DNA of 9,240 nucleotides from Escherichia coli (lineage in GTDB: Bacteria > Pseudomonadota > Gammaproteobacteria > Enterobacterales > Enterobacteriaceae): assembly GCF_003334385.1 (NCBI RefSeq), contig NZ_QOWN01000070.1; one strand, given 5' to 3'. This document shows positions 254 through 9,240 of this stretch, in pieces (within the stretch, counting starts at the first letter, position 1; each line of letters begins with the position of its first letter). Both the position numbers and the translations under genes were made by a program. Under the pieces are notes generated by a model. That model made no database searches. It saw nothing but the letters and a program-made list of their open reading frames with translations, and was not told the DNA's origin.

Positions 254-280
254 AAAAAGGCCCACCGGAGCGGATGGGCC
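254..280 (-). terminator. Intrinsic (rho-independent) terminator, minus-strand orientation
   Basis: A-run 254-258 followed by GC-rich hairpin ggccca-ccg-gag-cgg-a-tgggcc (259-280); on the minus strand this is a hairpin followed by UUUUU. Confidence 0.55.
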
Positions 281-471
281 TGGAAGGATAGCGGTCATGT
301 GATGCCGGTTTCCCGGTAACTCAGCACCGGTATCTGAGTCAACGTTTTCTCTACTGGGTCATTTCCGATACGCCCTGCCTGCTGACAGGCTTTCATCACA
401 TCTGAAAATATAGCACCCTGACTGATACTGTAGTACCCAAGGTTCCAGAAACTGTGATGTATCCGGCACAG

Positions 472-494
472 AAAAGCCCCTCCGGAGAGGGGCT
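472..494 (-). terminator. Intrinsic terminator, minus-strand orientation
   Basis: Perfect 8-bp inverted repeat agcccctc / gaggggct with loop cgga (475-494), preceded on plus by gaaaa; the minus-strand RNA is a hairpin followed by UUUUCUGUG. Confidence 0.55.
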
Positions 495-518
495 GGAGAG
501 TGGCGCTATGTGCCATTG

Positions 519-699
519 CATGGTGCCGGGTGCCTCCCGGTGAGTTCAGTATCAGCACCTGAACCCGCACAGAAAGGATAAGGGTCGGTGACAAAACACC
601 AGTTGCTGATTGCCCCTCCGCACAGGGGGATTCACCATGCCAGTTTCTTTTAACAAACTCCCCGCAAACCAGACAACAGTCAACCGCCTGAATTGTGAG
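519..699. repeat. Copy B of the ~180-bp structured repeat
   Basis: Same three conserved blocks as copy A (519-549, 612-640, 688-699) with diverged spacers. A second hairpin in both copies (gttcag...ctgaac in B, gttcag...ctaaac in A) varies between copies. Confidence 0.6.
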
Positions 700-704
700 A
701 CATT

Positions 705-729
705 TAAAAAAAAGCCCGCAAAAGCGAGC
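705..729 (-). terminator. Intrinsic terminator downstream of the tRNA cluster, minus-strand orientation
   Basis: A-run 705-713 then hairpin gcccgc-aaaa-gcgagc (714-729). The single C/A mismatch on plus becomes a G-U wobble in the minus-strand RNA, followed by eight or more U. Confidence 0.6.
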
Positions 730-744
730 CAGGGAAAATAAGTG

Positions 745-821
745 TGGCGCGTTCTACTGTATTCGAACCAGTGACCGATTGCTTAGAAGGCAATTGCTCT
801 GTCCGGCTGAGCTAACAACGC
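745..821 (-). tRNA. tRNA-Arg (anticodon UCU), phage-type (argO-like position)
   Basis: Minus-strand read: GCGTTGT-TA-GCTC-AGCCGGACA-GAGC-A-ATTGC-CTTCTAA-GCAAT-CGGTC-ACTGG-TTCGAAT-ACAGT-AGAACGC-G-CCA. D and anticodon stems are perfect, the T-loop is TTCGAAT, and the 3' CCA is encoded. One mismatch each in the acceptor stem and T-stem. Confidence 0.7.
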
Positions 822-834
822 AGGATACAGATAA

Positions 835-911
835 TGAACCGCCTTCGGGGACCCGAACTCCGCGCAACCAGCTTCGAAGGCTGGCGCTCTTTCCTGATGA
901 GCTAATGGCGG
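835..911 (-). tRNA. tRNA-like gene, possibly tRNA-Arg (anticodon UCG) or a degenerate tRNA pseudogene (argN-like position)
   Basis: Minus-strand read: CCGCCAT-TA-GCTC-ATCAGGAAA-GAGC-G-CCAGC-CTTCGAA-GCTGG-TTGCG-CGGAG-TTCGGGT-CCCCG-AAGGCGG-T-TCA. D and anticodon arms are perfect, but the T-loop is non-canonical (TTCGGGT), acceptor and T stems each carry one mismatch, and the 3' end reads TCA rather than CCA. Confidence 0.4.
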
Positions 912-918
912 TATGTGA

Positions 919-994
919 TGGTGGCCCTTGCTGGATTTGAACCAGCGACCTGGCGATTATGAGTCGCTCACTCTCACCACTGAGCTAAAGGGCC
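919..994 (-). tRNA. tRNA with anticodon CAU (tRNA-Ile2 or tRNA-Met type; ileZ-like position)
   Basis: Minus-strand read: GGCCCTT-TA-GCTC-AGTGGTGA-GAGT-G-AGCGA-CTCATAA-TCGCC-AGGTC-GCTGG-TTCAAAT-CCAGC-AAGGGCC-A-CCA. Acceptor and T stems are perfect, the T-loop is canonical, CCA is encoded; 76 nt. Confidence 0.75.
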
Positions 995-1004
995 GAGCCA
1001 AAAA

Positions 1005-1033
1005 ATAATAATCAGATGAAAATCAATAATCAA
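1005..1033 (-). promoter_or_regulatory. Sigma70-like promoter for the tRNA cluster
   Basis: On the minus strand, TTGATT (plus 1028-1033), a 17-nt spacer, then TATTAT (plus 1005-1010), ending about 10 nt upstream of the tRNA 5' end at 994. Overlaps the 3' end of the AraC-like ORF. Confidence 0.35.
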
Positions 1034-1736
1034 GCCCTTGCCTGGATACATATCTGTCTGGCGGGAAGCCATAATAGCGGTGAAATACAGAAATAAAGTA
1101 GGACCTGCTTGAATAACCGCATTTTTCTGCTATAGCCTGTCCATATCCATGCCGGGAACATAACATATTTACAGCAACACGCATCCGCTCTTCCAGCAAC
1201 AAGCGACTGAACATGCCCCCTTCATTTTTCAGTTTTGTCTTTAACAAACTCTCACTCATATGCAACTGTAGAGCAATCGCACCAAGCGTCCAGCTTGCTG
1301 ATATATCTGTCTGAATTATCGCCCTGACTTTGGCACTTATGCTGGATAAACATCCACTTAAAAACAATGACATCCGTTCATCTGTTTCAAACAGAGACAG
1401 GCAGGCCATCATAAGAAACATATCCGTGGCCTCTCCGGAAAATCCCTGGCTGGTAATTAAAGCCGCAGCCAACGCAGGATTGTTGGGTTCCAGCAACAGG
1501 TAAAGCGGAATGTCAGTCAGACGAGTCCTCGTCAGCTTATGCTGACTTTCCAGATATTGACTTACGACGGATTCGCTTATATCGACAATTTTAACTTTGC
1601 CATAATGCATAAGGAAAAGCTCCCTGATGCATTTGGTGGCCAGAACAACTGAGCCTGGCTTAAGTGACAACGTATCCTTTTCAAGAAAAATATTAATTGG
1701 GGAGCAAACCATGATAACTGAACAGACAACAGCCAT
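1023..1736 (-). CDS. AraC/XylS-family transcriptional regulator, YdeO/AppY/GadX-like
   Basis: ORF track, 237 aa, ATG start. The N-terminus MAVVCSVIMVC resembles the M-x-x-VCSV start I recall for YdeO/AppY. The C-terminal region (SESLLKTKLKNEGGMFSRLLLEERMRVA ... IAEKCGYSSRSYFISVFHRYYGFPP) has the pattern of the AraC-family HTH. From memory, not searched. Confidence 0.8.
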   Translation of the reverse strand: MAVVCSVIMVCSPINIFLEKDTLSLKPGSVVLATKCIRELFLMHYGKVKIVDISESVVSQYLESQHKLTRTRLTDIPLYLLLEPNNPALAAALITSQGFSGEATDMFLMMACLSLFETDERMSLFLSGCLSSISAKVRAIIQTDISASWTLGAIALQLHMSESLLKTKLKNEGGMFSRLLLEERMRVAVNMLCSRHGYGQAIAEKCGYSSRSYFISVFHRYYGFPPDRYVSRQGLDY

Positions 1737-1857
1737 TATAATTTTACTTTCATTAGCAATTGGTTAGCTCAATTATAGCCCCAAAAGGTAAATTATCATC
1801 AACACATAAGCAAAGGACTGACAGGTGTCGCCCCCCCACCAGCCGCCCATTCACCAC

Positions 1858-1884
1858 AAATAAAAAGCCTTCAGGACTGAAGGC
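1858..1884 (-). terminator. Intrinsic terminator at the 3' end of the small winged-helix ORF, minus-strand orientation
   Basis: A-rich run 1858-1866 then hairpin gccttca-ggac-tgaaggc (1867-1884); the minus-strand RNA is a hairpin followed by UUUUUAUUUG. Overlaps the stop codon at 1871-1873. Confidence 0.55.
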
Positions 1885-2068
1885 GTCTGTAACAACCGCA
1901 CTGATAGTCTGCCAGACCCGCCATAACAAGCTGGGTCAGTATTAACTGGCAGCGTTCGCGTGAAAGGTAAGTATTCTGCGCAATCTCCCCGACTGTCGCC
2001 GGTTCGGTAACGCTTAATTCATCAAACACAACTCTGGCGGTTTCTGTCATATCCTGCTGTTTCAGCAT
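1871..2068 (-). CDS. Small winged-helix DNA-binding protein, possibly FaeA/PapI-like
   Basis: ORF track, 65 aa, ATG start with a GGAAAGGG purine-rich stretch about 9 nt upstream. The pattern ATVGEIAQNTYLSRERCQLILTQLVMAGLA resembles the recognition-helix region of PapI/FaeA-type regulators as I recall them. Low-certainty assignment. Confidence 0.5.
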   Translation of the reverse strand: MLKQQDMTETARVVFDELSVTEPATVGEIAQNTYLSRERCQLILTQLVMAGLADYQCGCYRRLQS

Positions 2069-2192
2069 GTCTTTTTACCCTTTCCGGTTAACGTGACATA
2101 CCAATAACTCTTGTCTAAAAAGCCAGCAAGATAAAAAGCCAGTATTCACGACCACCAGCGTGTTTACTGTACTGCACCAAGTTTACAGGTAC

Positions 2193-2217
2193 AAAAAACC
2201 CGCTCAGTGGCGGGTTT
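2193..2217 (-). terminator. Intrinsic terminator (minus-strand, possibly weakly bidirectional) in the divergent intergenic region
   Basis: A6 run 2193-2198, perfect 6-bp hairpin acccgc-tcagtg-gcgggt (2198-2215), then ttt. The minus-strand RNA is a hairpin followed by UUUUUUGU; on the plus strand only three U follow. Confidence 0.5.
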
Positions 2218-2281
2218 AAGTTGTGTGGCGAAGTAACCACTCTTAACACAATACAATACTTTTTGCGTACGCGTTAGTGTT

Positions 2282-2334: not shown

Positions 2335-3510
2335 ATGGATATAACTTGTTTAGAATGTGGCAATGTTCTTGACGACCCAACTGTAGCTTGCGATAAATGC
2401 GGTGCCACGCCTCATGTTGTAGTGCTGGGCAAACAATCGTACTTTCCTATTGGTGCTGTAACAGCAAATCTTGAAAAAAATGATTCAAGAGCATTTGATT
2501 ATCGATTAGGTGAAGTTTGGGATCTAAAAAATGAAGTCACATCTGAATTCATAACCAGAATTGAGAAAAAATTTAGCCGAAAAAACAAATTTCATAACTT
2601 CCTAGACTCAGATCACAACCCTTCATCCATTCCTACGATCCTAAAAAAATACATTAATAAAAATAATGAATTCATTGATTTATCTAGAGCTATAATAGAG
2701 AAGCTTAAACATAATGCTAATAACGAATCGAGAGTTGCCCAACTTCAGGGGGGGAGCGTTGTTTTCATCCACTATAAGTCTACCGAACCAGAGGATTTGG
2801 GGAAACTTCTAATCGTAATGGTTGATAAACAAAGCGCCTATGACTTTGATTCGGATAAGTTGACCCCAACAAGATTAAATCCAATTAATACCGATGCCTT
2901 ACGGCAGGCTGCGATGTTCGATTTAACTTTATTCGAAGCCAGTTATCCAGAAAACAAGGGTGACTCATATGTACATTTCTTGCAAGGTAAATCTAAAAGC
3001 GATTTTTTCAAAGACTCATTAGGTTGCCGACATGATTCGGACAATAAAAGAAGCATTCAGCAATTATTCAGTGCTATAGATATTTTTGCTAGTAAAAACT
3101 CACTCGGTCGTGTACTGCGTGATACTATTGACAATGAAGTTAAATCCTTACTGGAAAAAAAATCAAAAGATAAACACGGAAATAAGTCCGTTAAGATAGA
3201 GGATATTTCAAAAATAATTGACTCATGCCTGACTGATTCACACAAATGTAAGGGAACGTTTGTCGATTTTGTTAATCTTAATGGTTTCCAGATTGACCCT
3301 CAATTTGAACCAACTCCTAAAGCAGCTGAAAGCGCGCTTACAATTGAAGTGGCAGATAACGACAATAATTTTAAGTTGAAAATAATGCGTGGAGCTATTG
3401 GAGACGAAAAGTCAAATAAGCCTGTAATTCTCACTGACAACAAATGCGAAATTGTGATAAAATTGAGTCAGGCAAATTATGATGAACTCAAAAGATATAG
3501 AGACAGCTAA
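2335..3510 (+). CDS. Cassette gene 1: N-terminal zinc-ribbon fused to an NdpA/YejK-like (NA37 family) nucleoid-associated-protein-like domain
   Basis: ORF track, 391 aa. The DNA is AT-rich (about 30% GC on a sampled 60-nt line, versus about 58% on a sampled line in the helicase gene). CxxC-x10-CxxC at C5, C8, C19, C22. The motifs GGSVVFIHY ... LLIVMVD ... AAMFDLTLF ... YVHFLQGKSKSDFFKDSLG match the order and spacing I recall for E. coli YejK (GG-V-LF-HY ... LLVAVL ... ARIDLTEW ... [22 protein letters not shown]). From memory, not verified. Confidence 0.8.
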   Translation: MDITCLECGNVLDDPTVACDKCGATPHVVVLGKQSYFPIGAVTANLEKNDSRAFDYRLGEVWDLKNEVTSEFITRIEKKFSRKNKFHNFLDSDHNPSSIPTILKKYINKNNEFIDLSRAIIEKLKHNANNESRVAQLQGGSVVFIHYKSTEPEDLGKLLIVMVDKQSAYDFDSDKLTPTRLNPINTDALRQAAMFDLTLFEASYPENKGDSYVHFLQGKSKSDFFKDSLGCRHDSDNKRSIQQLFSAIDIFASKNSLGRVLRDTIDNEVKSLLEKKSKDKHGNKSVKIEDISKIIDSCLTDSHKCKGTFVDFVNLNGFQIDPQFEPTPKAAESALTIEVADNDNNFKLKIMRGAIGDEKSNKPVILTDNKCEIVIKLSQANYDELKRYRDS

Positions 3511-3512
3511 TA

Positions 3513-4727
3513 ATGACAATTGCTGATGACTTATCAAGATTAGCGCAGATTATTAACGGAGCCTCAAGCAGAGTTGAGGGCTACTACACTGTCATAAGTC
3601 TTGAAGAAAGCATTGTTATTGTAAATAGTTCTGAAATAATTAGACTGTTACAATCTATAGGTTATAAAAAGGCAACAACCTGCATCGAAAATAATGAAAT
3701 TTGGCTAGATCGCCAAGCTTCATCTTGGGATGACGCTATAATTTATGAGAATGTTGAGTCTTTTTGGTCTAGAGTAAACACCCAAAACGCTCTTCCGAAA
3801 AATTATATCATCGGAACGCCGTTAATACTCCCTACTTCTAAGAATGAAAGCATCGAAAAAATCCATATTTTCTTTATGTGGAAAGATATCCTTTCATTAA
3901 TTGCTGATCATCATAACAGTGACTGCTCTGTCTTATTTTTCACCAATGAAGACAAAAGTTATACAGTCGAACTCACGCATTTTTTACAATATAGCGAGAT
4001 TAATCGCTTATCGAACTCGTCTCTTAAATATGAAATTATAAAGGAGCTTCTCGACACAATAAAAATCAATGATTTACACAAAAGCGAGCGCAAGCTCGTT
4101 ATACGCTCAGCCATAAACGAAGTATTTAAAGCAAATGGTACGTTCAATTTCTTTGACTTGCTTAACTCTACTGAACTCGTCAGGAAAAAATATGATGAAC
4201 TATATGAGATTTACACAAAGAGGTTTTCTGTAAATAAAATTCTTAACGAACTCGATGAGAAAAATCTTGAGTTCACGAGTAAAATTAACGAATTCATATC
4301 ATCTAATCAGACAAAAGCATTGACTATTCCCGGTGCATTAATAGCTGCTGGTGGCTTAGTGAAGGCTAATGAAACAACCGAAGCAATATTGATTATCGCA
4401 GGACTTTGGATGATAAAAAAAGTCAATTACATTTCTATTGAGATATTCAATGAAACATTCGACAACTTACGTTCTCGAGTGGAGTCCGCTTTCGATAAGT
4501 ATTTAAAGTTTGAAGAAAATAAAGAAATCAAAGATAATGCAGATAGTATTAAGAGTAGCATTACAGGTTTGATTGATAAAGCTAAAAAAAGGATGAGAAC
4601 TGTTAAATATCTCGCATCAGCCATGTTTTATGGAGGCCTTATTTACGTTGGATATAAACAGTTCCCAGTCTTTTTTGAAAAATCGGCAGTAAATCTATTT
4701 TATTTTTTATGCCATACTATAAGCTAA
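3513..4727 (+). CDS. Cassette gene 2: predicted membrane-associated protein of unknown function (candidate effector)
   Basis: ORF track, 404 aa. The ATG lies 2 nt after the gene 1 stop, indicating an operon. AT-rich. Hydrophobic segments ALTIPGALIAAGGLV and AILIIAGLWMI (about nt 4318-4420) and the C-terminal YLASAMFYGGLIYVGY (about nt 4608-4680). No catalytic motif recognised. Confidence 0.8.
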   Translation: MTIADDLSRLAQIINGASSRVEGYYTVISLEESIVIVNSSEIIRLLQSIGYKKATTCIENNEIWLDRQASSWDDAIIYENVESFWSRVNTQNALPKNYIIGTPLILPTSKNESIEKIHIFFMWKDILSLIADHHNSDCSVLFFTNEDKSYTVELTHFLQYSEINRLSNSSLKYEIIKELLDTIKINDLHKSERKLVIRSAINEVFKANGTFNFFDLLNSTELVRKKYDELYEIYTKRFSVNKILNELDEKNLEFTSKINEFISSNQTKALTIPGALIAAGGLVKANETTEAILIIAGLWMIKKVNYISIEIFNETFDNLRSRVESAFDKYLKFEENKEIKDNADSIKSSITGLIDKAKKRMRTVKYLASAMFYGGLIYVGYKQFPVFFEKSAVNLFYFLCHTIS

Positions 4728-5063
4728 CATTGCTAAACAGCCGTCAACAAACCCCATTGCAGTTTGCAGTTCCTTCCTAATTGTGCCATCAGAGCATTTT
4801 CTCTTCTTCGCAATAGTACGTAATGAGATACCGATAACAAAGTGGGCGATGATGAGCTCATATTCCTCTGGTTTATACCTTCTCAACCGAGCCACACAAC
4901 TGTCTATCATGATGCCTTCGTCATCATCACACTGAATCCGTGACTTTTTGCCATGAGGTAAAAGTCCCTTGAAACCAGCCGCTATCGGCTGCCAGTCCAC
5001 TCCGCTATTGTCTGAAGCAGCCCAAGCTCCCCAACGATCCATTACTTCATACATATCACGCAT
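4707..5063 (-). CDS. Phage antitermination protein Q (QuuD-like small Q family)
   Basis: The ORF track calls 4707..5078 from a TTG. I prefer the in-frame ATG at 5061-5063, which has GGAGA 6 nt upstream and gives MRDMYEVMDRWGAWAA..., matching the M-R-D...ERWGAWAA start I recall for DLP12 QuuD-type Q proteins. The 3' end overlaps cassette gene 2 convergently by 21 bp. Confidence 0.75.
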   Translation of the reverse strand: MRDMYEVMDRWGAWAASDNSGVDWQPIAAGFKGLLPHGKKSRIQCDDDEGIMIDSCVARLRRYKPEEYELIIAHFVIGISLRTIAKKRKCSDGTIRKELQTAMGFVDGCLAMLAYSMA

Positions 5064-5080
5064 CAACTTTCTCCACAAAA

Positions 5081-6100
5081 TCAGGCCAGCACACCAATTG
5101 CCAGCGCACGATCGATAAAACGAAATATCAACTCCAGCTGGGAGCCATACTTCTCTTCAAATGCCACGGTATCCGCATGCAGCTCGTCGTGATGCTTTCT
5201 GCACAAAGGCAACACAAAGAGATCATGCGCTTTTGTACCCATTCCCCCCTGACCGTGGCCTATCAGATGGTGGGGATCATCAGCAGGCTTTCCACAACAT
5301 GCACACGGCTGCGTCTTAACCCAGCGCGTGTACTTTTCATTAACCCAGCGGCGACGTTTGGGGCGTAACATAAAAGACTCCGGCGACTCCGGATCCACTT
5401 TCAGCGCCAGCACCTTTTTCGCTTTATCCTGGATGATGCTGGTGGCAGGAACCGAAGGCACAAGGTCACTTTCCCGGGTGACAGACGGCACAACAGGCTT
5501 CGGTAATCTCAGTGCCTTACGGGCTGCACTTTCCGGTAAGGCATCCGCCAGGTCATTACGAATCAGCCACCAGCACAGTTCCGGCATTGTCACAACGTGA
5601 CTGTCATCAAAACCAAGATCACGGCGCACAACAGATAACACCCAGCGGGCACAGTTATCCGTTGCCATTGCTTCCAGCCGTTCCGTGAACTGGTCACGGA
5701 GAAGATTGTCACAGTGCCAGCACAGACGGATTGCACCCGGCGCGTGTCGCATTGTGGTCATGTTCTCGCTGTGCCATCCGGAATGAGGCCACTGACAGCC
5801 CTTTTCACGAAGTAACCAGCTTTCAAGACATTCCACCCCACCAGTACAACGAATAACTGCCTCATTGCGGAACACGGCCCGAACGGCAGGATCATCCGCC
5901 AGCGGTTGTGATGCTGCCGGAACGGCACCGCTGGCGAAAGATGAATAACGTTCCGGCTCAGGCTCCAGCAGGACACGCCCCTGCATAAACAGGGGCATCA
6001 GCTCTGAACCGGGCCTGAACAATACAATCCCCATACGCGGGGCAATTTCAGGGGTCAGCAGTGCTCTCACGGTCACCTCAGCAAACGATATTGAATGCAT
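5081..6100 (-). CDS. DUF968-like phage protein with a C-terminal Cys/His (HNH-like) motif
   Basis: ORF track, 339 aa, ATG start. The C-terminal motif CACCGKPADDPHHLIGHGQGG...LPLCRKHHDELH resembles the YdfU/DUF968 family found just upstream of Q in E. coli prophages. From memory. Confidence 0.7.
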   Translation of the reverse strand: MHSISFAEVTVRALLTPEIAPRMGIVLFRPGSELMPLFMQGRVLLEPEPERYSSFASGAVPAASQPLADDPAVRAVFRNEAVIRCTGGVECLESWLLREKGCQWPHSGWHSENMTTMRHAPGAIRLCWHCDNLLRDQFTERLEAMATDNCARWVLSVVRRDLGFDDSHVVTMPELCWWLIRNDLADALPESAARKALRLPKPVVPSVTRESDLVPSVPATSIIQDKAKKVLALKVDPESPESFMLRPKRRRWVNEKYTRWVKTQPCACCGKPADDPHHLIGHGQGGMGTKAHDLFVLPLCRKHHDELHADTVAFEEKYGSQLELIFRFIDRALAIGVLA

Positions 6101-6121
6101 ACAGAGAAAAAAACTCAGTCA

Positions 6122-6379
6122 TCACGCAGTAAACTCCTTCACCAGTATTTCAAACTGGCTTACCTGTCCTTCCAGTTCCGCCACGCAATCCACCAGCTCA
6201 TCCACCGCCTTTTGTGTGCGGTGTTTTGCCTGCAGCAGATCACGAAGCGCCGGAGTAAGCTGCTTGCGGAGCGTATCTTTTTTCACGCTCGTTTTTTCCA
6301 TCTGTTCAGCACAACGAAGCATCTCCTGCGCCTGCCGACGAAGTTGTTCCGGTGAAACAGTGATTGTTCTGTTGTTCAA
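6122..6379 (-). CDS. Hypothetical small phage protein (85 aa, predicted helical)
   Basis: ORF track; TTG start overlapping the helicase stop (TTGA), with GGAG about 8 nt upstream; no in-frame ATG until residue 20. Charged, helix-like composition. No family recognised. Confidence 0.45.
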   Translation of the reverse strand: MNNRTITVSPEQLRRQAQEMLRCAEQMEKTSVKKDTLRKQLTPALRDLLQAKHRTQKAVDELVDCVAELEGQVSQFEILVKEFTA

Positions 6380-7776
6380 AATAAACGCTCCGTTTTACTG
6401 CCCGACATGCGGTTATTGCTGTATCTGCGCGGATTGCCCGGCGTCATGGGTGTGGAAAGAACCCGGGCACTCTCCTGGTCCACAGGCAGAAAATGTCCGT
6501 TATGAAAACGCCGGTAAATGGTCCCGAGCGTGCCATTACGCTGTTTCGTGATGTTGATTTCTGCTATGCCTCTGGCCTGAGTTTCCGGGTTGTATACCTC
6601 ATCCCTGTAAAGCATCAGAATGATGTCGGCATCCGCCTCGATTTCCCCGGAGTTTTTCAGGTCCGAGTTCATTGGGCGTTTATTGGGTCTGGATTCCACG
6701 CCGCGGGAGAGCTGGCTCAGAGCAATCAGCGGAAAACCGCCGGATTTTGCCAGGCTTTTAAGTCCCTTTGAGATTTCCCCCACCGCAAGGTCGTGACGCC
6801 CCGTGCTGCGGGTTTTAATCAGGCCGAGGTAATCGACCACCACCAGCGCCGTTTCCGGGTGTTTCATCCGGTGGTGCTTCGTGGTTGCACATATCTCATC
6901 AATGGTCAGGTTTGCCTGGTCCACCATCCAGATATTACGCCCCGTCATTCGTCCCACGCCCTGCGAGAAACGCGCCCAGTCTTCATCTTCAAAACGGGCA
7001 ACAGACTTAAGACGGGATACCGGCATTCCACCGGCAGCAGACACCATACGTTCACCAATCTGGATGTTCGCCATCTCCATGGTGAACAGAAGCACGCCAT
7101 GCCCCTGCTCAGTCACCTTGTCGATGATGTCCAGCGCAAGTTCGGTTTTCCCCATCGAAGGACGGGCGGCAATGAATACCAGGTCTCCGGGCTCCATACC
7201 GCCCGTTTTTGCGTCCAGTTCATCAATACCGGTCATCAGCGCCCTGGATTTCTCCAGTCCCTGATTGCGGCATTCAACACGGTCGACCACTTCCGGAAGG
7301 ACATCATCAATGTGAACCGGCTGAATGACGCCCTTTCCGGTCGACAGTGAGGCCATCATGTTCTGCACATCCTTCAGGGCATCCTCGGCTGCTTCACAGG
7401 TATACGCATCACGTAAATTCTGTAATGCTTCAGTCAGTGTTTTTTCTGCATCGCGCAGTGCGGCATTGCGCCGCAACGCTGCGACATAGTGCTCCAGTGA
7501 AGACTTCACCCAGGTTTTGCGTCCGGTGTCGGTAATCACCGGGGCAAGTTCCGGCATCTCATTGCACAGCAGTACGGGGTCAATGACGCCGGATATGCGA
7601 GCCTGTCTGCAAATCCCCGCGTAAATATCCCGGTACTGACGCACAAAAAATACATCCGCCGGAAGTGTGGCCAGAATATCCATCACTTCCGGATCGGCCC
7701 CACGCAGAAAAAACGCACCGATGACAGCGCCTTCCAGGTCATCGTTACGCCATGCCGGGGTGTTCTGGCTGGTCAT
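6376..7776 (-). CDS. DnaB-family replicative DNA helicase (phage-encoded)
   Basis: ORF track, 466 aa, ATG start with GGAGGTG 7 nt upstream. Walker A ARPSMGKT, and the block ALSQLSRGVESRPNKRPMNSDLKNSGEIEADADIILMLYRDEVY closely parallels E. coli DnaB ([44 protein letters not shown]). Confidence 0.9.
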   Translation of the reverse strand: MTSQNTPAWRNDDLEGAVIGAFFLRGADPEVMDILATLPADVFFVRQYRDIYAGICRQARISGVIDPVLLCNEMPELAPVITDTGRKTWVKSSLEHYVAALRRNAALRDAEKTLTEALQNLRDAYTCEAAEDALKDVQNMMASLSTGKGVIQPVHIDDVLPEVVDRVECRNQGLEKSRALMTGIDELDAKTGGMEPGDLVFIAARPSMGKTELALDIIDKVTEQGHGVLLFTMEMANIQIGERMVSAAGGMPVSRLKSVARFEDEDWARFSQGVGRMTGRNIWMVDQANLTIDEICATTKHHRMKHPETALVVVDYLGLIKTRSTGRHDLAVGEISKGLKSLAKSGGFPLIALSQLSRGVESRPNKRPMNSDLKNSGEIEADADIILMLYRDEVYNPETQARGIAEINITKQRNGTLGTIYRRFHNGHFLPVDQESARVLSTPMTPGNPRRYSNNRMSGSKTERLF

Positions 7777-8672
7777 GCGGCAACACCTCCGATACGAGAA
7801 CGGTAGCTGGGCCAGTTAAACGACAACCAGTTGCGCCCGTCATCGGTGATCCTGTCGGCAATCCGGGGACTGATGAACGCCCACAATTCTTCCGGTGAAA
7901 GATTGCTGATCAAGATAGTTGGCAAAATACCCTCATACCGGGCATTGATAATTTCCTGCAAAATGGCCATTTCAGCCGCACTGCCAAACTGAACGCCGAC
8001 TTCGTCGACAATCAGCAAATCCAGTGACGCATAATGCTCAATGACGTCATCCGCTGTTTTTTCACTGTCATTCCGCCAGCAGTTTTTCACAGCCCGGGTA
8101 AGGCGCATCACGTCGGTGATCTCCACACTGGCCAGATAGTTACGGATGATGTGTTTTGCCATTGATACCGCCAGATGATTTTTCCCGGTACCGCAACTGC
8201 CGGTCATAACAAGACTGGTACCGTTCTCCAGCATATCTGGCCAGTTCTCCGCATAGCGGCGACAGGCCGCAAGATTTCTGGCTGCGTCAGGATTAACCTC
8301 CAGATAATTATCAAACTCGCAGTCCCGAAAACGCAGAGCAATTCCGGCGTTATCAGTCAGTTCTTCCGCCTTGAGGGACGACAGTTCCATGGTCAAATCA
8401 CTGGCCTCAGCGATCAAGCAGTCAGGGCAGCATGAAATTTTTTCTCTGTCCTCGCCATTACGATCGATCCACACCAGTATATGCGTACGATATTTACCGT
8501 GTTTTTCGCAATATCCGCGACCTTCACGCATCAGGCAGGAACGATAAGGCCATGGCTTTTCGCCCTTCTGAGCAAATGCAATCTCTGCCCGTAACTCATC
8601 CATTTCTGCCCGTAAATCATCCATTCGCGCCTGTAGTCTTGTTTGTTTCTCACGTTGGTCAATCGTCATCAT
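7773..8672 (-). CDS. DnaC-like helicase loader (AAA+ ATPase)
   Basis: The ORF track calls 7773..8681 from a GTG. I prefer the ATG at 8670-8672, with GAGGTGA about 5 nt upstream. Walker A GSCGTGKNHLA, Walker B LLIVDEVG, and C-terminal FNWPSYRSR (E. coli DnaC has FNWDSYRSR). The stop overlaps the helicase start (ATGA). Confidence 0.85.
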   Translation of the reverse strand: MMTIDQREKQTRLQARMDDLRAEMDELRAEIAFAQKGEKPWPYRSCLMREGRGYCEKHGKYRTHILVWIDRNGEDREKISCCPDCLIAEASDLTMELSSLKAEELTDNAGIALRFRDCEFDNYLEVNPDAARNLAACRRYAENWPDMLENGTSLVMTGSCGTGKNHLAVSMAKHIIRNYLASVEITDVMRLTRAVKNCWRNDSEKTADDVIEHYASLDLLIVDEVGVQFGSAAEMAILQEIINARYEGILPTILISNLSPEELWAFISPRIADRITDDGRNWLSFNWPSYRSRIGGVAA

Positions 8673-8682
8673 CGCTGTCACC

Positions 8683-9240
8683 TCAGAATGTCAATTTGTT
8701 ACTGGATTTACCAAATTTGTCAGACATGGCTCCCAGGCCAGCCAGGACATCGACCTGTCGCTGTCGCCCACCTCCGTGAGCGGCTGGCTGTTGCCAGTAA
8801 TCTTCGAAGTGACGATCGGGTCCAAAGAACGTCGCAGCCTGCTTCACGAACTGTGTGCCGGTATTTCCTGTAGCACGTACCCAGGCGGCATACCGCTTCA
8901 CGCCATCAAGCATGGTCTCCGGTTTTATTCCCTCCCTGATACGGGCTTTCCAGGCTTTGAAGGCTGCTGACTTGGAATTGCCACCAGCACGTTTGGGATA
9001 TTCCTGCCAGGCCTGTTCAAATTCCGGTGAATATTCCTGTCTGGCAGAACGCGCTGGTGCAGACGCGTCAGCGGATGCGCCAATAGTGTTTTTAGTCTCC
9101 GTTGTAATCTCTGTAGTAATCTCTGTATTTGTATCAACATTCGGCGTATCCCCTGTTCCGTTACGACGTCGGGGGGTGTTCCGTTTTAACGTAATAGCTG
9201 TATCGCTGATTGCATTATTGCTGTTACTTTCTGGCGAAAC
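8683..9240 (-). CDS. Phage replication initiator (O-like replisome organiser), C-terminal part; 5' end lies beyond the window
   Basis: I translated the minus strand by hand from 9240 down to the stop at 8683-8685 and found no in-frame stop. The track's 76-aa ORF (8683..8913) is the tail of this frame. The C-terminal sequence EFEQAWQEYPKRAGGNSKSAAFKAWKARIREGIKPETMLDGVKRYAAWVRATG...FFGPDRHFEDYWQQP resembles the conserved C-terminal domain of lambdoid replication proteins. It sits immediately upstream of the DnaC-like gene. Confidence 0.7.
   Translation of the reverse strand, partial: VSPESNSNNAISDTAITLKRNTPRRRNGTGDTPNVDTNTEITTEITTETKNTIGASADASAPARSARQEYSPEFEQAWQEYPKRAGGNSKSAAFKAWKARIREGIKPETMLDGVKRYAAWVRATGNTGTQFVKQAATFFGPDRHFEDYWQQPAAHGGGRQRQVDVLAGLGAMSDKFGKSSNKLTF
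9104..9127. repeat. Perfect tandem 12-mer (GTAATCTCTGTA x2) inside the O-like gene; candidate iterons
   Basis: 9104-9115 is identical to 9116-9127, with partial copies on both flanks. A 9-mer TGTTCCGTT also recurs at 9155-9163 and 9177-9185. The tandem encodes the TEITTEITTE linker on the minus strand. Confidence 0.55.

Follow-up and report, generated by a model that had tools for sequence, protein, structure and literature searches.

Late-strand intrinsic terminators of an Escherichia coli lambdoid prophage: a probable PR'-tR' late start followed by cassettes with terminators of their own

The window analysed here is a stretch of 9,240 nucleotides from an Escherichia coli contig. Its minus strand carries a late-gene antiterminator gene, Q, and further along a putative late promoter, a small open reading frame, a regulator gene, three tRNA genes and several small RNA (sRNA) units, among which lie five hairpins with U-runs, T1 to T5 (Table 1). 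The nearest genome matches positions 1-2400 at 100% identity and continues on the same strand with genes for an esterase, a holin, a lysozyme, Rz and terminase; these late genes are known from that related genome and lie beyond the window, of which none of the complete E. coli genomes covers more than 71%. The Q product matches phrog_79 ('anti-termination protein Q-like'), is annotated in RefSeq as 'antiterminator Q family protein', and is 46% identical to the Sakai/933W-type Q. Membership of the phage 82 family was considered and rejected, as Pfam puts the protein in the Q21/Q933W family. A phmmer search of the PDB gave no match for Q at the default threshold, and one with E values up to 10 gave a weak, borderline similarity to the solved Q21 structure (E 0.001). 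The two plus-strand genes beside Q form a DS-1 anti-phage cassette (NCBIfam DS1_1_antiphage, 451 bits against a cutoff of 330; DS1_2_antiphage, 375 bits against 315), which is context here and stands outside the terminator series; a consensus scan places a plus-strand promoter-like site at 2282-2309.

Table 1. Coordinates of the features discussed, listed in the direction of the minus strand.
Feature	Position	Strand	Evidence
Late-gene antiterminator Q, Q21/Q933W family	4707-5078	minus	Pfam PF06530, E 3.5e-47
DS-1 anti-phage cassette, two genes, between Q and PR'	2335-4727	plus	NCBIfam
Putative late promoter PR'	2248-2277	minus	alignment with the annotated 'putative late promoter' of VT1-Sakai and with Sakai Sp5
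Predicted PR' leader RNA, ~49 nt	2193-2241	minus	-19.6 kcal/mol, z -3.8
T1, assigned as tR', Q-responsive terminator of the late promoter	2193-2217 (stem 2217-2196, U-run to 2193)	minus	homologue annotated in AP000400; -13.8 kcal/mol, z -3.2
65-aa ORF, first after PR'/tR'	1871-2068	minus	phrog_331, E 6e-37
T2	stem 1884-1867, tail to 1858	minus	-11.1 kcal/mol, z -2.1
Promoter-like site upstream of AraC-like gene	1772-1799	minus	ATGATA-16-TATAAT, 10/12 positions
AraC/YdeO/GadX-like regulator, 237 aa	1023-1736	minus	NCBIfam, phrog_1450
Promoter-like site directly upstream of tRNA cluster	1005-1033	minus	TTGATT-17-TATTAT, 9/12 positions
tRNA cluster: CAT anticodon (annotated tRNA-Ile, ileZ type), Arg-TCG, Arg-TCT	745-994	minus	ARAGORN, Rfam, RefSeq
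T3	stem 730-713, tail to 705	minus	-11.4 kcal/mol, z -3.6
sRNA STnc100, complete copy	464-669	minus	Rfam RF02076, 141.4 bits (gathering score 47)
T4	stem 494-475, tail to 467	minus	-19.3 kcal/mol, z -3.7
Unnamed sRNA-like module ending in T5, predicted RNA ~150 nt (401-254)	250-415	minus	extended -10 TGcTATATT at 415-407
T5	stem 281-258, tail to 250	minus	-16.3 kcal/mol, z -2.2
Second STnc100 copy, cut by window edge	1-186	minus	RF02076, 134.1 bits, truncated at 3' end

All five of the minus-strand terminators that a first-pass annotation had read from the sequence were found where it placed them. The free-energy folding that it had proposed as a check was run on 39-43 nt contexts, with z-scores taken against dinucleotide shuffles, and the values of -11.1 to -19.3 kcal/mol show that the hairpins are not thermodynamically insignificant. 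A strict scan (a single hairpin of at most 26 nt, a free energy of -9 kcal/mol or lower, and at least five T in the next 8 bases) returned exactly T1 to T5 on the minus strand of positions 1-2300 and, on the plus strand, a single site that is the antisense of a tRNA arm. The same scan of 100 dinucleotide shuffles of this region gave a mean of 0.14 sites and a maximum of 2, with none of the 100 reaching five. The U-tract, at least five T in the 8 bases 3' of the stem, is present at all five, for T1 provided that the A-U extension of its stem is left out of the count. Across the whole window the consensus scan reports 26 terminator-like sites against 9.2 +/- 3.3 in shuffles and recovers T2 to T5; it misses T1 solely because the T1 stem runs into its T-run. 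Another hairpin flagged by scanning, at 2138-2159, was not significant on folding (-7.4 kcal/mol, z -1.4). The left edge of the window cuts through a sixth terminator on the same strand, which is identical to T4 and can be seen in full in a related locus (L001, 9007-8980). T1 to T5 are thus confirmed as genuine elements of the intrinsic-terminator type, at which RNA 3' ends would be expected to fall.

The first of the series, T1, had been described as lacking an upstream transcription unit and as a possible insulator of the regulator genes against antisense read-through. Neither proposal fits the alignment of window positions 2188-2248 with VT1-Sakai (AP000400), which runs through the annotated late promoter, the Q-utilization site and a 'putative rho-independent terminator for pR' transcript'. 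The PR' start would lie about 25-49 nt upstream of T1, and T1 itself corresponds to tR'. The putative promoter combines a -35-like CTAACG (2277-2272) with a -10 TATTGT (2253-2248) across an 18-bp spacer. At 2272-2265 (about -31 to -24) lies the palindrome GCGTACGC, which may serve as a Q-binding element. The -35 is a weak one, and at PR' the consensus scan calls no promoter on the minus strand; a search by eye for a -35 hexamer and a pause hexamer there found no convincing example of either, and both are assigned by homology. An invariant TAAGAGTGGTTACTTCGCC, with no clear TATAAT-like hexamer, spans the region annotated 'Q-utilization' in VT1-Sakai. Transcription would probably start at about A2241, which puts T1 at about +25 to +49, and in Sakai Sp5 a start at the equivalent A reproduces exactly the published PR'-to-tR' distance of 258 nt (PMC7547250). 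The predicted leader contains an invariant inverted repeat, GTGGTTAC..GCCAC, followed by T1.

Comparison of related loci suggests that this arrangement is maintained. The PR' block is conserved in 128 loci, 97 of which have a hairpin and T-run ending at a median of +45, with a weakened form in 29 more. Several unrelated stem sequences occupy the T1 position among the 128, including a compensatory CCCGT/ACGGG, and one common variant of T1 is weak (-5.7 kcal/mol). Across 111 loci the sequence of the 8-10 bp palindrome (about -31 to -24) changes in step with the Q allele, even where Q lies 1-3.8 kb away. PR' in the published systems is constitutive, with transcription stopped at tR' and Q reading through (PMC7547250). 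The tR' published for Sp5 (PMC7547250) is not the first hairpin at +45 but the second (+258), which has Term-seq support; the first is therefore evidently leaky in that phage.

Beyond T1, each terminator closes a recognizable unit. T2 (1858-1884) follows the 65-aa ORF, which occupies the same position in Stx2 phages, and its 3' arm holds the stop codon of that ORF; an identical hairpin follows the same ORF in two related loci (L002 and L004). Since the consensus scan found no convincing promoter for this ORF, T2 may belong to the leader as a second terminator and not to a cassette. T3 (705-729) lies 15 nt past the last tRNA and closes a unit made up of the AraC-like gene, whose matches to NCBIfam YdeO (1e-31) and GadX (1e-24) are both under their cutoffs, and the three tRNAs. 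The T3 hairpin is also present after argO in Sp5, just upstream of stx2A, and in loci L002, L003 and L004.

The remaining units are sRNA genes or resemble them. T4 (472-494) is the terminator of STnc100 itself, its helix being part of the RF02076 consensus, and a T4-type hairpin follows STnc100 downstream of stx2B in L002. The two STnc100 copies are direct repeats of one another, the period being about 484 bp, with the rest of the second copy being visible in L001; reading by eye, we also noted a weaker possible promoter upstream of each. Between them lies the module that ends in T5, which folds at -54.4 kcal/mol (z -2.6). Its promoter-to-terminator block is conserved in 673 of 5426 E. coli genomes and is found also in prophages with other Q types, and in a 91% variant both of its hairpins are kept through compensatory changes. 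That variant alters four of the six hairpin-spanning codons of a possible 33-aa ORF while keeping the hairpin, and we rejected the ORF as a constrained feature of the module. Neither could the module be assigned to a named sRNA: positions 252-425 score 30.1 bits against RF02076, below the gathering threshold of 47, and in a blastn comparison with the pasD2-esterase-pasA locus of E2348/69 the sole match was to the 5' motif of the two STnc100 copies. The fragments published for PasD and PasA are absent from the window. Weak Rfam matches to STnc130 (2103-2225, plus strand, E 0.57), to Plastid-ycf2 antisense to a tRNA, and to snoRNAs were treated as chance.

The closest parallels are the PR'-tR' regions of the Q21/Q933W family (phage 21, VT1-Sakai, Sp5 and 933W), which share with this prophage a Q in PF06530 and an order in which tR' is followed by tRNA genes and these by lysis genes. 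VT1-Sakai and Sp5 have a promoter, an initial transcribed region and a first hairpin homologous to those described here, and phage 21 has the same layout of Q, PR', a terminator within 50 nt, tRNAs and then holin, its annotated leader having a start site at 1674 and a terminator at 1676-1723 (coordinates of L007). There are three differences: the distance from PR' to the Q stop codon is 17-48 nt in the known systems as opposed to about 2.46 kb in the window; the palindrome upstream of the -10 is TACGATCGTA in those systems and GCGTACGC here; and the 258-nt StxS segment with its second terminator, as in VT1-Sakai, Sp5 and 933W, is absent, the 65-aa ORF and T2 standing in its place. The tR'/6S RNA region of phage lambda works by the same logic: the late promoter is constitutive, its short leader RNA is terminated, and Q, loaded at the promoter, lets polymerase read through the terminators downstream. 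The lambda Q, however, belongs to another family (PF03589), the region has no sequence similarity to the window, and in lambda no tRNA or sRNA cassettes separate tR' from the lysis genes. The units closed by T2 to T5 resemble morons, being short and of variable presence among related phages; all have terminators, and the regulator gene, the tRNA cluster and the T5 module each have a predicted promoter-like site ahead of them. They differ from morons in being mostly RNA genes (tRNAs and sRNAs) rather than protein-coding ones, and in the 65-aa ORF with no promoter found. The two STnc100 copies score far above the gathering threshold of a family found, with the related PasD sRNAs, in prophages of pathogenic E. 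coli; T4 and the sixth terminator are this sRNA's own, and the location of the copies, directly ahead of the genes for sialate esterase and holin, agrees with the published synteny.

Taken together, these observations make it likely that late transcription of a lambdoid, Stx-phage-like prophage begins on this minus strand, with a PR'-tR' start followed by cassettes that carry their own terminators and precede the lysis genes. T1 to T5 are all on the late strand between PR' and the lysis and structural genes, and polymerase starting at PR' must therefore cross every one of them. According to the mechanism that we propose, PR' would be constitutive and its transcripts would halt about 49 nt downstream at T1. 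Between this tR' and the lysis genes would lie the cassettes, each with an intrinsic terminator of its own, in the order 65-aa ORF and T2, AraC-like gene with three tRNAs and T3, STnc100 and T4, sRNA-like module and T5, and the second STnc100 copy with the sixth terminator. In the lysogen these terminators would set the 3' ends of short cassette transcripts and keep transcripts out of the lysis genes. After induction, Q would load onto polymerase at PR' and render it terminator-resistant, and the modified polymerase would then cross all of the terminators to reach the lysis genes; Q-loaded complexes are reported to disregard terminators (10.1101/651190).

The first-pass annotation had seen in the whole series a barrier that only Q-modified polymerase would cross. 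That all of the terminators lie on the late strand, after PR' and before the lysis genes, holds; a dedicated construction does not, T2 to T5 being best explained, from their positions and relatives, as the 3' ends of separately inserted units rather than as a purpose-built barrier. As a full alternative, a multi-layered barrier with T1 as an orphan insulator against antisense transcription through the plus-strand genes is improbable. Its attractions are that all five terminators share one orientation ahead of the lysis genes, that minus-strand transcription leaving Q would cross DS-1 antisense and meet T1 first, and that no minus-strand terminator was found between Q and the DS-1 cassette. T1 is nevertheless inseparable from the PR' block and has the same position in 39 loci where this block directly follows Q and there are no antisense genes, its homologue is annotated as the pR' terminator, and in other phages the remaining terminators are found together with the cassettes that they close. 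Moreover, 57 related phages have anywhere from 0 to 6 late-strand terminators within the 3 kb that follow PR', and five or six in a row are therefore not essential to the design.

We regard as very unlikely the idea that T1 and T2 belong to a regulated leader, an attenuator governing the 65-aa ORF and the genes downstream through a factor other than Q, with an RNA-binding protein and an sRNA-like activity of the leader itself as candidates. The absence of a separate promoter for the 65-aa ORF in our scan and the invariant hairpin ahead of T1 would suit such a leader, as would the precedent of Stx phages, in which the PR' leader has gained an Hfq-dependent sRNA function as StxS (PMC7547250). 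The invariant leader element coincides, however, with the annotated Q-utilization region of VT1-Sakai and sits where phage 21 has sigma-dependent pause elements, the upstream palindrome co-varies with Q, and an sRNA role would supplement that of tR' and not replace it. That the hairpins are not terminators at all and represent chance palindromes, protein-binding sites or recombination scars is hardly conceivable, for while the local-fold z-scores of T2 and T5 are moderate, the excess over shuffled sequence, the same-strand U-run on every hairpin, the placement of each exactly at the end of a recognizable unit, the membership of T4 in a curated RNA family consensus, and the pairing kept in T1 and T5 despite sequence change all speak against it.

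On this reading the PR'-tR' start with its cassettes represents the textbook Q mechanism combined with moron-like cassettes, both already known, and involves no new mechanism. It clarifies the annotation in that the seeming orphan terminator is tR', separated from Q by a defence cassette, and what remains of the supposed barrier comes down to the ordinary 3' ends of cassettes for tRNAs, a regulator and sRNAs, which are also found around stx genes in Shiga-toxin phages. When Q-dependent control of late or toxin genes is mapped, PR' and tR' should accordingly be sought beside the late genes and not necessarily beside Q.

The PR' block of the window starts 2461 nt past the Q stop codon, and the late promoter is not immediately downstream of Q, because the plus-strand DS-1 cassette sits between them. 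Displacement of this kind, by 622-3782 nt, is found in 75 of 114 related loci, and Q-PR' adjacency is therefore not universal in the lineage. It is tempting to suppose that in this Q21/Q933W-family lineage PR' and tR', together with the pause region and the candidate Q-binding element, make up a compact unit that remains attached to the late genes, that its junction with Q is a widely used insertion hotspot for anti-phage cargo on the opposite strand, that the allele-specific palindrome is the Q-recognition site, and that the 49-nt leader and the ~150-nt T5 RNA are undescribed sRNAs of the Hfq type; as a joint proposal this is tentative, and we think it rather doubtful that all of it is correct. 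PADLOC gives no match for the two plus-strand proteins of the window or for the cassettes in the related loci L004 and L005, and among the cassettes examined NCBIfam names only the DS-1 pair of the window. In all, about 40 architectures occur at the Q-PR' junction, including DS-1, PDC-S20, PD-Lambda-1 and NsnA-like systems.

The window is part of a lambdoid prophage of E. coli and a mosaic one: complete E. coli genomes cover at most 71% of it, the left 6 kb matching one prophage lineage at 99–100% and the replication region (about 6100-9240) matching other phages. A prophage of strain STEC2018-553 has 100% identity over positions 1-2400. From high to low coordinates the minus strand carries replication genes, an HNH/DUF968 gene and the late antiterminator gene Q, and in the nearest genome it continues past the left edge into sialate esterase, holin, lysozyme, Rz and terminase genes; this makes the minus strand the late one, in agreement with what the first-pass annotation had assumed.

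That annotation placed five hairpin plus U-run terminators (T1-T5) on this strand, and all five are confirmed. Free-energy folding of each hairpin, one of the checks it had proposed, used 39-43 nt contexts and gave -11.1 to -19.3 kcal/mol, with z-scores against dinucleotide shuffles of -2.1 to -3.7. A strict scan (a single hairpin of ≤26 nt, dG ≤ -9, at least 5 T among the next 8 bases) of minus-strand positions 1-2300 returns exactly T1-T5 and no others; the plus strand of the same segment gives one site, the antisense of a tRNA arm, and 100 dinucleotide shuffles give a mean of 0.14 and a maximum of 2. A consensus scan of the whole window reports 26 terminator-like sites versus 9.2 ± 3.3 in shuffles, picking up T2-T5 and missing T1 only because the T1 stem can run into its T-run. 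A sixth terminator, identical to T4, spans the window's left edge. Some 25-50 nt beyond this edge lies a strong terminator of opposite orientation to the late strand (8949-8978, plus, in L001, the locus extending past that edge; -15.5 kcal/mol), whose sequence matches the sRNA candidate 'E2348C_1409.E2348C_1408.IGR' of an EPEC RIL-seq study (supplement of PMC8550237).

Features of the terminator region and its surroundings, in window coordinates
Feature	Position	Strand	Details
Q, late antiterminator	4707-5078	minus	Pfam PF06530, Q21/Q933W family
Two-gene DS-1 anti-phage cassette, between Q and the terminators	2335-4727	plus	NCBIfam, above cutoff
VT1-Sakai "putative late promoter", equivalent	2275-2248	minus	depositors' annotation
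VT1-Sakai "putative Q-utilization", equivalent	2234-2227	minus	depositors' annotation
VT1-Sakai "putative rho-independent terminator for pR' transcript", equivalent	2215-2193	minus	depositors' annotation; T1
T1	stem 2217-2196, U-run to 2193	minus	-13.8 kcal/mol, z -3.2
T2	stem 1884-1867, tail to 1858	minus	-11.1 kcal/mol, z -2.1; stop codon of 65-aa ORF (phrog_331) within 3′ arm (T2 1858-1884)
Promoter-like site before AraC/YdeO-like gene	1799-1772	minus	10/12 matches
Promoter-like site before tRNA cluster	1033-1005	minus	9/12 matches
T3	stem 730-713, tail to 705	minus	-11.4 kcal/mol, z -3.6
STnc100 copy	464-669	minus	141 bits vs gathering score 47
T4	stem 494-475, tail to 467	minus	-19.3 kcal/mol, z -3.7
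sRNA-like module	250-415	minus	extended -10 TGcTATATT (415-407), ~150-nt RNA, T5
T5	stem 281-258, tail to 250	minus	-16.3 kcal/mol, z -2.2
STnc100 second copy, cut by window edge	1-186	minus	134 bits

T1, which had been suggested as a possible insulator with no obvious upstream gene, is instead, by sequence homology, the putative tR', the terminator of transcripts from the late promoter PR'. The 100 nt upstream of it are homologous to sequence found directly 3′ of Q in phages that lack the cassette, and VT1-Sakai aligns to window 2188-2248, its annotated pR' terminator falling on T1. In Sp5, the Sakai prophage with stx2, the PR'-to-tR' distance is 258 nt by dRNA-seq and Term-seq (PMC7547250), and a transcript started at the A of TAAGAG is exactly 258 nt long when it ends on the final U of the second hairpin. 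A2241 is the corresponding base of the window and puts T1 at +25 to +49. The -10 of this PR' (TATTGT) is reasonable, the -35 is weak and the consensus scan makes no call there; we infer its promoter activity from homology only. Phage 21, the structurally characterised member of the Q21/Q933W family, has the annotated order Q, PR' with a Q-binding element, pause element, terminator, tRNA genes and holin, and its terminator is likewise <50 nt from the start site.

Scanning viral contigs for the invariant core TAAGAGTGGTTACNTNGCCAC of the PR'-tR' block recovered 120 further loci with 74 distinct block variants. A hairpin and T-run ending at a median of +45 is present in 97 of 128 loci, and 29 more (L014, L028, L041 and 26 others, at +25 to +45) have a weakened first terminator in which GCGG replaces GCGGG, with one G-C pair lost (-5.7 kcal/mol) and a longer run of 7-8 T. 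There are at least five unrelated or compensated stems (CCCGC/GCGGG, CCCGT/ACGGG, CCGCC/GGCGG, CCCTGCC/GGCGGGG and CCCAC/GTGGG). As a terminator, the first hairpin may generally be leaky; that of Sp5 is evidently read through, since the 258-nt precursor of StxS, the sRNA from the PR' leader, ends at the second hairpin. An inverted repeat near the 5′ end of the PR' transcript, GTGGTTAC..GCCAC within nucleotides 1-20 (2225-2240, minus), overlaps the Q-utilization region annotated in VT1-Sakai and is invariant in 128 of 128 loci; this lack of variation leaves no covariation signal for its RNA hairpin.

A palindrome of 8-10 bp with an A-run after it closely precedes the PR' -10, at about -31 to -19 (2265-2272, minus, in the window), and across 111 loci it co-varies with the Q allele. 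It is GCGTACGC in all 38 loci of the window's Q cluster, two of them with ATGCGTACGC; TACGATCGTA or a one-base variant in the 34 loci of the Sp5/933W cluster; GCGGTCCGC in the 28 loci of EH2246-like clusters, but GCGGCCCGC in 2 of these; and TGTTATAACA (4 loci) and GGAATTCC (2+1 loci) in two divergent clusters. The association persists in every member of the window's cluster although 1.1-3.8 kb of differing cargo separates the block from Q. The palindrome may be the Q-binding element of phages in the 933W-like branch of the Q21 family, the association being inflated by shared ancestry; phage 21 has a direct repeat in its place.

The hairpin of T2 follows the same 65-aa ORF, in identical form, in two Stx2 phages. 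As this ORF has no promoter that we could find, T2 may be a second leader terminator, a role comparable to that of the +258 hairpin of Sp5. T3 lies 15 nt past the last of three tRNA genes, and the same hairpin comes after argO in Sp5, where it directly precedes stx2A, as well as in three further phages. One of these tRNAs, with a CAT anticodon (919-994, minus), is tRNA-Met according to ARAGORN versus tRNA-Ile (ileZ type) in RefSeq and the Sakai record. The 237-aa AraC-family regulator (1023-1736, minus) resembles YdeO and GadX below NCBIfam cutoffs; its gene has its own promoter-like site, with no terminator between it and the tRNA cluster, and related Stx2 phages have a DNA methylase gene in its place.

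The hairpin of T4 belongs to the Rfam sRNA STnc100 as its terminator helix; published work places this sRNA downstream of stx2, beside esterase and holin genes. A direct repeat with a period of ~484 bp (1-216 and 484-699) comprises two copies of the STnc100 gene and of the region upstream of it, and as the match to several genomes, including O104:H4 strains, begins only at position 473, the copy number of the module differs among strains. T5 ends an sRNA-like module that has no RefSeq annotation. The module has two variants and is conserved from promoter to terminator in 673 of the 5426 complete E. coli genomes; it is also found where the prophage has a Q of another type. In the 91% variant, compensatory changes and an indel leave the 5′ hairpin and the terminator both intact, and four of the six codons of a possible 33-aa ORF that span the 5′ hairpin are altered. 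The module folds with a z-score of -2.6, and in this fold a stretch rich in C and U stays single-stranded before the terminator. Its identification as STnc100 (30 bits against a gathering score of 47) or as PasD was rejected.

The best-supported account of the series is the textbook Q mechanism together with cassettes. PR' would fire constitutively, its transcripts halting at tR', and after induction Q would load at PR' and polymerase would ignore terminators, as described previously (PMC7547250; 10.1101/651190). T2-T5 would end short cassettes that lie within the late operon, and in the lysogen would keep cassette transcripts from the lysis genes. The proposed barrier crossed only by Q-modified polymerase thus holds in effect, but its reading of T1 was wrong and a purpose-built device is not supported: among 57 distinct relatives there are 0-6 late-strand terminators in the 3 kb after PR' (mean 2.5, versus 0.9 on the other strand), with the window's lineage at the top of the range. 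On this account the stack would have arisen as cargo accumulated. Each element has a described counterpart: the annotated pR' terminator, the tRNA terminator of Stx2 phages, STnc100 and moron-type cassettes.

The Q stop codon lies 622-3782 nt from the PR' block in 75 of 114 related loci, and the variable cargo between them comprises about 40 gene architectures, almost always opposite to the late strand. Matches to known or candidate defence systems are DS-1 in the window (NCBIfam) and, by PADLOC in other loci, PDC-S20 (589 bits), PD-Lambda-1 (299 bits) and NsnA-like and ATPase-Toprim/HEC-04-like proteins; many loci have cargo without any match. The interval looks like a cargo hotspot, of which a non-exhaustive literature search found no description. 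In the window Q and the second DS-1 gene are convergent, and their 3′ ends overlap by 21 bp (4707-4727). Neither strand has a terminator between the two genes, so that transcription of the cassette could enter Q antisense, and that of Q the cassette.
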